From: a virus | Taxonomy: Duplodnaviria > Heunggongvirae > Uroviricota > Caudoviricetes | Direction: 5' to 3' (one strand) | IMG/VR virus record: IMGVR_UViG_2654588181_000005 | Span: 1-26,467 of that record | DNA length: 26,467 nucleotides | In this document: in pieces, positions 18,100 through 19,449 of the stretch | How the letters are laid out: every line of letters starts with the position of its first letter | Position numbering within the stretch: the stretch's first letter is position 1 | Notes under the pieces: model-generated | Database searches by the model: none | What the model was told of the DNA's origin: nothing | What the model saw: the letters and a program-made list of their open reading frames with translations, nothing else | Translations under genes and position numbers: made by a program

Positions 18100-18248
18100 A
18101 TCACAGTTTTATGATAAAACTTTTACCTTGGTTTGGAGTGCTGTAGAGAGATATTTTAGGGGGGCGAGTAATTTTCTAAGCTGGAGCATATTGACATATA
18201 TTATTTCGGATTTGCAAAATACATATTGTTACCATGGAGGAGACAAGC

Positions 18249-19409
18249 ATGGAAAATTTTGCAAATAAGTTAAAAATACACACAGAGCATGTTGCAAAAA
18301 TGGGGGTGTTTTGTACAACTGAAGAAACGACAAAACAAGCACTCATTATGCCATTACTAGATATTCTTGGTTTTACTCCGTATGATCCAAGAAAAGTCAA
18401 AGCTGAGTATAGTGCTGACTTCCCCGGGGTTAAGGCTAATGAACGGGTTGATTACGCTTTATTTTGTCATGATGTTCCTGTGATGTTCATTGAGGCGAAA
18501 TCGTTTTCAGAACAAATTGATAATCACTGCCCACAGCTATCAAGATATTTTAATTCAACACCGGAAGTTACTATATCAGCCATTACAAATGGTGTTGAAT
18601 GGCGTTTTTTTACGGATTTGAAACAAAAAAACATAATGGATTCAACGCCGTTTTTAAAAATAAGAATGGATTCTCTAACTCACTCCGATATTACACAATT
18701 ATTTCGTTTTCGTTATGATAAATTCAAACCAGAGGCTTTACGGACACTGGCTGAAGAAAGTGTTTATTTGAATTCATTTACTAAAACAATCAGTTCTAGT
18801 CTTCGTGAAGTTGATCTGGAGTTTGTTCGATATGTTGCTAGTCGTTCAAATATTGAGAGACAACTTAATCAGAGATTTCTTGAGTTCGTGACTCCATTAG
18901 TTAAACAGGCCGTTGAGCGCGCTGTTAGCGCAATGGTGGTTTCCGGGCTATCTACACAACCGGTAGAGCAAACTAAAGAAAATGATGCAACGGATACACA
19001 AGTTAATAACGCCATTGTTGATGAAGAAAACCCCAACATAATAACCACAGCCAAAGAATTGGAGCTATTTGAAAGGGTAAAACAAATCATACAAACAGAA
19101 GATAATATAGAATATAAAGATACTGAGTCATATTTTGGTGTGCTATTGAATGGTAAAACTAATAGATGGCTGTTAAGATTTTATGATAAAAAATCTTCAT
19201 TTATAACTTTACCTATTTCGCTTAGTGAAGTTCAGTTGAATGAAATAAGACGAGCTCGACTTGATACGGATGGTAAAAGGATACATATAACTAATCCGGA
19301 AGATATACTTCGCATATCTGGTTTGATTCTGGATTCATACGAGTATGTTAAAAATGATGATAATTTCCGCCGAGGGTCCAGAGTGAGCAGTTTAGAAGAG
19401 GTTGAATAA
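18249..19409 (+). CDS. Moron: PD-(D/E)xK nuclease-domain protein (386 aa), type I restriction HsdR N-terminal/Mrr-like fold; candidate defence gene
   Basis: GGAGG 7 nt before the ATG at 18249; motif TEETTKQALIMPLLDILG...RVDYALF...VMFIEAK...ITNGVEWRFF gives E25, D68, E82-x-K84 in PD-(D/E)xK arrangement; visibly low GC; own terminator; interrupts the W-J gene order. Confidence 0.6.
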   Translation: MENFANKLKIHTEHVAKMGVFCTTEETTKQALIMPLLDILGFTPYDPRKVKAEYSADFPGVKANERVDYALFCHDVPVMFIEAKSFSEQIDNHCPQLSRYFNSTPEVTISAITNGVEWRFFTDLKQKNIMDSTPFLKIRMDSLTHSDITQLFRFRYDKFKPEALRTLAEESVYLNSFTKTISSSLREVDLEFVRYVASRSNIERQLNQRFLEFVTPLVKQAVERAVSAMVVSGLSTQPVEQTKENDATDTQVNNAIVDEENPNIITTAKELELFERVKQIIQTEDNIEYKDTESYFGVLLNGKTNRWLLRFYDKKSSFITLPISLSEVQLNEIRRARLDTDGKRIHITNPEDILRISGLILDSYEYVKNDDNFRRGSRVSSLEEVE

Positions 19410-19412
19410 GTA

Positions 19413-19437
19413 AAAAACCCGCGAAAGCGGGTTTTTT
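19413..19437 (+). terminator. Intrinsic terminator of the moron cassette
   Basis: AAAAACCCGC-gaaa-GCGGGTTTTTT, 4 nt after the stop codon. Confidence 0.8.
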
Positions 19438-19449
19438 AATGGAGTAAAT

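Follow-up and report, generated by a model that had tools for sequence, protein, structure and literature searches.

The stretch of DNA analyzed here (the window, 26,467 nucleotides) spans positions 1 to 26,467 of the IMG/VR virus record IMGVR_UViG_2654588181_000005 and is a Rac-type lambdoid prophage of Escherichia coli, integrated at ttcA. In its P2-like baseplate and tail-fibre module, a 1.35-kb cassette lies between the genes in the W and J positions. The cassette carries one gene for a 386-amino-acid (aa) protein, a predicted nuclease of a large family linked to temperate phages, which may protect the lysogen by destroying incoming DNA. The module is ordered V, the 115-aa W-position gene, J, an I-position gene, a fibre gene, and a fibre-assembly gene. 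This order agrees with the P2-type arrangement given in an earlier note on this DNA. The identity of W does not follow in the same way: the gene matched no GPW_gp25 profile and had no PDB sequence match, so that the label 'W' denotes position and size only. The features of the locus are listed below.

16756-17469: V gene of the baseplate module
17752-18099, + strand: 115-aa W-position gene, left flank (phrog_7986, function unknown)
18100-18248, + strand: 5' non-coding region of the cassette, GC content 0.356
18249-19409, + strand: 386-aa open reading frame (ORF), the single ORF in the W-J interval
19411-19438, + strand: intrinsic terminator hairpin (arms 19411-19422 and 19427-19438, GAAA loop, T-run)
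19450-20676, + strand: baseplate J/gp47-family gene, right flank

The cassette occupies the entire interval from the stop of the W-position gene (18099) to the start of J (19450), which is where the earlier note had placed it. A ribosome-binding site, GGAGGAG, is located at 18236-18242, 6 nt 5' of the ATG; with the use of another ATG, at 18234, the protein would have 391 aa. The identical protein in RefSeq, WP_000426902.1, is also 386 aa long and is named 'type I restriction endonuclease'. Further upstream, a sigma-70-like site (TTGACA-18 nt-CAAAAT, 18191-18220) matches the consensus at 10 of 12 positions in AT-rich DNA. The terminator has a perfect stem of 12 bp with a ΔG of -17.4 kcal/mol (z = -5.0 versus shuffles), so the cassette possesses both the ribosome-binding site and the perfect terminator that had been attributed to it. 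A simple terminator scan did not have this hairpin in its list. The hairpin is symmetric, with an A-run and a T-run, and is therefore potentially bidirectional. Late transcription of lambdoid phages is Q-antiterminated, so that in an intact prophage J could still be transcribed past the terminator. No RNA elements were found in the cassette at Rfam gathering thresholds.

The composition of the cassette differs strongly from that of its surroundings. Its GC content is 0.356, against 0.497 for the W-position gene, 0.491 for J, and 0.513 for V (35.6% vs. 49-51%, much below the flanking tail genes, as had been noticed before), and its GC content at third codon positions (GC3) is 0.26 vs. 0.48-0.59 in the flanking genes. 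In a junction alignment with relatives that carry an antirepressor gene (Ant) at this site, homology breaks off at the stop codon of the W-position gene, up to which the gene is 94% identical to its relatives, and returns at the start codon of J. An exact 12-nt direct repeat, GTTTTTTAATGG, occurs at 18057-18068, within the last part of the W-position gene, and at 19431-19442, at the right edge of the cassette. We rejected this repeat as an insertion scar, as one copy lies within the W-position gene, off the junction; it is probably due to chance or to microhomology used in the recombination by which the cargo arrived.

A survey of 5,426 complete E. coli genomes revealed about 100 with this tail module. 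The W-J interval holds the nuclease gene, at 99.6-100% identity, in only 25 of them, and the gene is therefore no core tail component. In the remaining genomes the interval contains an AntA-family antirepressor gene on the opposite strand, accompanied by an LprI-family gene or by genes for unknown proteins of 150-180 aa (comparison loci L002 6338-8206, L003 6232-7876, and L011 2838-3792). The LprI-family cargo has its own terminator directly before J. An identification of these other cargos as known defence genes was rejected, with nothing found in PADLOC and AntA as the sole informative match in Pfam. No empty W-J junction was seen among the related E. coli prophages with this tail module. 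The earlier note had pictured the cassette as interrupting an otherwise empty junction, and on this point it has to be revised: since the slot is filled in every related E. coli prophage seen, the event was a replacement of cargo and not an insertion into a bare junction. The composition, the breakpoints, and the polymorphism support the view that the cassette is a horizontally acquired single-gene cargo carried by the prophage, as had been suggested.

The domain structure of the 386-aa protein was analyzed with the use of profile searches and an AlphaFold2 model, which has a mean confidence score (pLDDT) of 80.6. The parts of the protein are encoded as follows.

18249-18668, + strand: HsdR-type PD-(D/E)XK nuclease domain, residues 1-140
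Motif codons of this domain: E25 (18321-18323), D68 (18450-18452), E82 (18492-18494), K84 (18498-18500), Q96 (18534-18536), Y100 (18546-18548)
18669-18950, + strand: helical middle region, residues 141-234 (pLDDT 65-90)
18951-19016, + strand: disordered acidic linker of variable length, residues 235-256 (pLDDT below 50 at 232-253)
19017-19373, + strand: alpha/beta C-terminal domain, residues 257-375, with a fold like that of YdhG (DUF1801), YjbR (DUF419), and the C-terminal domain of T4 MotA

Residues 25-128 match the Pfam family HSDR_N (PF04313; 5e-14, 53 bits, cut-off 25.1) and also HSDR_N_2 (PF13588; 2e-9, 37.8 bits, cut-off 25), and the whole protein falls into phrog_4225 of PHROGs, which is annotated as 'endonuclease'. 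A D...ExK triad combined with a QxxxY motif is the signature of HsdR/RecB-type nucleases. The protein has the complete set (E25, D68, E82-x-K84, and Q96xxxY100) in a restriction-endonuclease-like fold. All of 41 distant homologs, which go down to 27-28% identity, match HSDR_N as well. Across them E25, K29, D68, K84, Y100, G115, D123, and P134 never vary, with E82 and Q96 close to invariant, which indicates that both the D...ExK and the QxxxY motifs are intact. These results bear out the earlier recognition of an HsdR-N-type active site from E25, D68, and E82-x-K84.

The C-terminal half had previously been regarded as one unrecognised block of about 200 aa. It can now be divided into three parts. 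In the model, the middle region forms helices at residues 145-152, 161-186, 190-199, and 208-234, and the linker that follows is the gap-rich and least conserved block of the alignment. The C-terminal domain of 120 aa contains the conserved motifs TT..E, KDTESY, and NRW..R. A sequence search of the PDB, with both the single sequence and the family profile, gave no match to the protein, and a Foldseek comparison with the PDB found no full-length analogue. No transmembrane helix is evident in the sequence or in the AlphaFold2 model, no dedicated predictor having been run.

The family to which the protein belongs is large. An exhaustive HMMER search gave 3,369 clusters at 50% identity with E ≤ 1e-3, including 293 with E ≤ 1e-30, and most members are 350-400 aa long and match from end to end. 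Against four homologs, nonsynonymous divergence (pN) was 0.09-0.22, compared with a synonymous divergence (pS) of about 0.77, which is saturated. This data indicates that the whole architecture is under purifying selection and that the gene is no decaying fragment of HsdR. Among 50,697 phage records, 19 contain a homolog, and all of these phages are of the temperate type.

The position of the gene in its relatives was the most telling result. In seven of the eight phage records inspected, it belongs to the lysogeny module, where it follows a repressor gene or an ImmR-ImmA pair directly and in the same orientation, often just before the integrase gene. These are the phages S. pneumoniae IPP25, Klebsiella KpF5, Lacticaseibacillus P7.1, Clostridium CWou-2020a, Corynebacterium Juicebox, Fusobacterium FNU_1P, and Enterococcus EG-TP1. 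A Porphyromonas phage departs from this pattern, with the gene placed after HicAB in a cargo region that precedes the neck and tape-measure genes. The upstream repressors are of the cI, Xre, or RacR type where they are not an ImmR-ImmA pair. Bacterial genomes show this arrangement as well, the gaps being 9-40 bp, for example in Citrobacter, Xenorhabdus, lambdoid and Mu-like prophages of Salmonella, Enterobacter, and E. coli PCN061 and STEC384. On a metagenomic prophage contig from an untyped host, the order is repressor, nuclease, and an Abi_2 gene. The linkage to repressors thus spans Proteobacteria, Firmicutes, Actinobacteria, and Fusobacteria.

A census of the neighbours at 80 species-level loci of Gamma- and Betaproteobacteria gave a similar picture. 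A co-oriented ORF was present within 200 bp upstream at 48 of the loci. The upstream ORFs included 19 with HTH_3 and 18 with Peptidase_S24, and a few were Q antiterminators or tail proteins. The downstream neighbours were heterogeneous, with phage antirepressors as the sole recurring class. Neither hsdM nor hsdS was found in the window, as an immediate neighbour at the 80 loci, or in about 25 further contexts. There was also no conserved methyltransferase neighbour at the 80 loci; the phage methyltransferases that occasionally lie near a homolog are no consistent partners. No resemblance to a phage-inducible chromosomal island (PICI) was apparent in any of the contexts inspected.

The racR gene of the window allows a direct comparison of the two kinds of position.

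7331-7807, - strand: racR of the window, with its downstream slot at 7197-7331 (filled in comparison loci L108 and L014)

In E. coli PCN061 and in phage KpF5, a homolog of the nuclease gene lies between a racR gene that is 76% identical to that of the window and a 44-bp segment that matches window positions 7197-7240. From this arrangement it follows that the slot downstream of racR is 'empty' in the window prophage, which has a family member in the tail slot instead. Other sites are also used. One homolog lies next to AntA in a replication module. An allele with 78% identity (locus L010, 9002-10159) occurs in an Stx2 prophage in three E. coli genomes; it runs opposite to the late genes, with the Q antiterminator gene on one side and the methyltransferase/tRNA/stx2 region on the other. 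Xenorhabdus, Photorhabdus, and Providencia conserve a two-gene unit, in which a gene for a 230-236-aa repressor with HTH_3 and Peptidase_S24 is followed, after a gap of 9 bp, by the nuclease gene (L016 4290-6152; also L024, L028, L030, L032, L034, L036, and L039-L041). In X. budapestensis there are no other phage genes near this unit. The unit represents a domesticated remnant or else a self-contained module that responds to the SOS signal.

The window prophage itself is a damaged one. Its gene content is that of the Rac type, with intR, xisR, ralR/RalA, recET, kilR, racR, and ydaS/T-like genes in addition to the tail module. In comparison with the intact prophage of strain JNU, about 13.7 kb are missing through an internal deletion. 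At the junction, near 16519-16520 of the window (compared with positions 5441 and 19120 of locus L001), the sequence passes from a point shortly beyond the terminase 3' end, where the following gene begins, into the gene that precedes V. Lost with this segment were the genes for the portal, head, tail sheath/tube, and tape measure. The loss of the head and tail genes means that the window copy is defective and unable to make virions. The nuclease gene is intact and 100% identical in the intact (JNU) and the deleted versions.

In our judgement the best reading, and by a small measure a probable one, is that the gene encodes a stand-alone nuclease which is expressed in the lysogen and destroys incoming foreign or phage DNA. 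The cassette would then be a 'moron', an autonomous accessory gene with a promoter-like site, a ribosome-binding site, and a terminator, which entered a cargo slot of the late (tail) operon. Foreign composition and presence/absence polymorphism were both found, the terminator is strong, and the candidate promoter is the 10/12 match in AT-rich DNA. The product is predicted to be a soluble DNA endonuclease that acts alone. Its N-terminal HsdR/RecB-type PD-(D/E)XK domain would cut DNA, and the helical segment and the flexible acidic linker would tether the C-terminal domain, whose most likely task is target selection, through DNA binding or through perception of a phage cue. The protein would be present in the lysogen, through co-transcription with the repressor gene in most relatives and from its own promoter in the window, and the lysogen, hence also the prophage, would be protected.

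Several observations point in this direction. Position in a repressor operon implies that the product is made in the lysogen. The complete HsdR-type active site argues for DNA cleavage, and the lack of a partner gene argues for function as a single protein. A defence role is plausible and is supported by the strong synteny behind repressors across phyla. As no methyltransferase is conserved beside the gene, the host DNA would have to be spared through target specificity, similar to Type IV enzymes that act on modified or structurally unusual DNA, or through activation of the nuclease by infection. Our confidence in any single mechanism of self/non-self discrimination is considerably lower than our confidence in the reading as a whole.

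Some points speak against a defence role. A search of PADLOC-DB 2.0.0 gave no match for the 386-aa protein at E ≤ 10, so there is no guilt by homology, and the other W-J cargos (Ant, the LprI-family protein, and the unknowns) are equally without a PADLOC match or, AntA excepted, an informative Pfam match. Among the papers searched, no functional study of the family was found; the nuclease gene is not mentioned in a pneumococcal prophage paper, and a Z. mobilis paper is devoted to HsdR_N-HsdM fusions. Some homologs, such as that in Gilliamella, are solitary among housekeeping genes. The promoter evidence in the window is weak, with 12 sigma-70-like sites observed vs. 6.5 ± 3 expected. A nuclease that is made constitutively would also need a means of sparing the host.

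Three other explanations were weighed. The gene may be a free-standing, selfish endonuclease of the homing type, which cuts alleles that lack the gene and is copied in at repair, with no benefit to the host or prophage. Enzymes of this kind exemplified by I-TevI consist of a nuclease, a long flexible linker, and a small DNA-binding domain, and the N-terminal nuclease, linker, and small putative DNA-binding C-terminal domain of the modelled protein resemble them. The precise placement of a gene of foreign composition between two conserved genes would fit homing. The same is true of the many sites occupied by the family (the W-J slot, the Q-stx slot, positions behind repressors, replication modules, and chromosomal sites) and of the polymorphism of the slot downstream of racR, which is occupied in PCN061 and KpF5 but vacant in the window. 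However, homing would not lead one to expect a strong bias to a single co-oriented position downstream of repressors in at least four phyla. Lytic phages are the usual carriers of free-standing homing endonucleases, whereas this family is restricted to phages of the temperate type. Its stable chromosomal conservation across species of Xenorhabdus, Photorhabdus, and Gilliamella also speaks against homing, and no empty W-J allele was seen that might serve as a target. We therefore consider homing unlikely. A nuclease regulated together with the repressor may also serve the phage in a role other than defence, such as maintenance, induction, recombination, degradation of host or competitor DNA, or counter-defence. 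The tight linkage to SOS-cleavable (Peptidase_S24) repressors, with gaps of 9-30 bp, is in favour of such a role, as are the frequent antirepressor neighbours (AntA, P22_AR, and Bro-N) and the presence of Ant in the W-J slot of relatives. Yet the gene is dispensable, being absent from most related prophages. It has been kept intact in the window prophage despite the lost head and tail genes, when no virions are possible, and the two-gene repressor-nuclease remnants of Xenorhabdus persist without other phage genes. A phage-serving role of this kind thus appears rather improbable.

The names given in RefSeq and UniRef, 'type I restriction endonuclease (subunit R)', suggest a third possibility, that the protein is a true Type I R subunit working with HsdM and HsdS of the host, or else a decayed, non-functional fragment of one. 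The N-terminal domain is genuinely homologous to the nuclease domains of HsdR. Nevertheless, the protein has no superfamily 2 (SF2) motor or helicase (no ResIII or Helicase_C match) and no HsdR C-terminal domain, and its residues 141-386 match nothing in HsdR. It scored 19 bits with the NCBIfam HsdR equivalog, for which the cut-off is 729, and neither hsdM nor hsdS adjoins the gene at the roughly 100 loci examined. A fragment would hardly keep a full architecture of 350-400 aa, down to 27-28% identity, under purifying selection. On the grounds of domain content, neighbours, and conservation, a genuine Type I HsdR or a fragment of it was rejected, and we regard it as highly improbable. The explanation that we prefer remains a nuclease that is expressed in the lysogen and directed against incoming DNA.

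We compared the protein with known systems. A named defence system of the PADLOC collection was rejected as its identity, in agreement with the earlier note: the protein itself matched nothing, and the 41 distant homologs gave only weak matches at the level of the nuclease domain (Type IIG restriction endonuclease, mad2, and Cas4), which amount to noise. The closest nuclease domains are those of Type I HsdR (EcoR124I, 2w00; 3h1t) and of Type IIG enzymes (DrdV, 7lo5; BpuSI, 3s1s). Unlike these enzymes, the 386-aa protein lacks an ATP-dependent motor, methyltransferase or specificity domains, and hsdM/hsdS partners, and has a small YjbR/MotA-like C-terminal domain instead. The Type IV single-chain enzymes exemplified by PvuRts1I and AbaSI are modification-dependent and have an N-terminal nuclease and a C-terminal DNA-reader domain. 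The protein is similar to them as a solitary nuclease without a cognate methyltransferase, with a catalytic N-terminus and a putative recognition function at the C-terminus. Its C-terminal domain, however, resembles YdhG, YjbR, and the MotA C-terminal domain and not an SRA or winged-helix reader.

With respect to gene position, the nearest parallels are rexAB of phage lambda and BstA of Salmonella phage BTP1, prophage exclusion genes that are located downstream of the repressor gene and expressed in the lysogen. The commonest position of the nuclease family, directly downstream of and co-oriented with a prophage repressor, is the same, and like BstA the nuclease is a single gene acting alone. 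There is no relationship in sequence or fold, and the RexAB and BstA models of PADLOC were not matched. The window copy also differs from them in lying in a tail-gene slot instead of behind the repressor, and in having a predicted nuclease as its effector. SNIPE (PD-lambda-1) is a single-protein defence in which a nuclease with a DNA-binding domain cuts phage DNA directly; it needs no methyltransferase, as self is spared independently of modification, and is composed of a transmembrane anchor, DUF4041, and a GIY-YIG domain (PMC13190303). The 386-aa protein is likewise a single-chain nuclease without a methyltransferase. It differs from SNIPE in its PD-(D/E)XK nuclease, in its second domain, and in that no membrane segment is evident, and it matched none of the PD-Lambda models of PADLOC.

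The name of one further system resembles the annotation of the family. FS_HsdR_like, from the work of Fillol-Salom et al. in Cell in 2022, is reportedly a single-gene, HsdR-like anti-phage system of enterobacterial PICIs and is said to be included in DefenseFinder. The present family may be the same system; none of its inspected contexts was a PICI. If the gene is FS_HsdR_like, the new points would be the recurrent position downstream of repressors and the domain anatomy.

Other accessory genes were observed in the window. A 257-aa protein encoded at 12910-13683 (- strand) has an N-terminal KilA-N domain (Pfam, 4e-27), and its C-terminal part matches the BstA model of PADLOC (3e-21). This gene is probably a BstA-type abortive-infection gene of the same prophage. 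It is located in a low-GC accessory region, with replication genes on one side and nin-like genes on the other. The V-W spacer (17470-17751) is a second, smaller variable region, which is 283 bp long here vs. about 700-840 bp in relatives. A strong symmetric hairpin (17502-17545) lies in it, together with an ORF of 67 aa (17552-17755) that has no family match. Rfam searches detected the RalA antitoxin small RNA of ralR/RalA (218 bits, 1557-1735, + strand) and the sok antitoxin RNA (101 bits, 14038-14208, + strand). The latter match implies a module of the hok/sok type, beside a stretch of very low GC content (0.34) at 14400-14800. At the edge between prophage and chromosome, past the remnants of tail-fibre genes, a gene at 24893-26221 (+ strand) codes for a YadA-like trimeric autotransporter adhesin with head, stalk, and anchor domains.

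The W-J junction of Rac-SA53-type tails is a cargo hotspot, and its other occupants, Ant, the LprI-family protein, and the unknowns, are worth testing. More tentatively, and with appreciably less confidence than in the lysogen-expressed nuclease as such, we suggest that the family forms an unnamed, phylum-spanning class of methyltransferase-free restriction nucleases of lysogens. This class would be the counterpart of rexAB and BstA in repressor operons. Its C-terminal domain would represent a new means of self/non-self discrimination, responding, for example, to hypermodified bases, free or injected DNA ends, or a phage protein, and the W-J copy would be the same module in the form of a self-transcribed moron. 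Candidate single-gene defence nucleases are common, and this family is set apart from them by its size, its misannotation, and its position downstream of repressors. If the proposal is true, a large misannotated family would be a single-gene immunity placed in the repressor operons of temperate phages in at least four bacterial phyla. A widespread annotation error (about 3,400 clusters, 'type I restriction endonuclease' in RefSeq) would be corrected, and a compact nuclease would join the catalogue of defence systems, with the question of how the host chromosome is spared without a methyltransferase.

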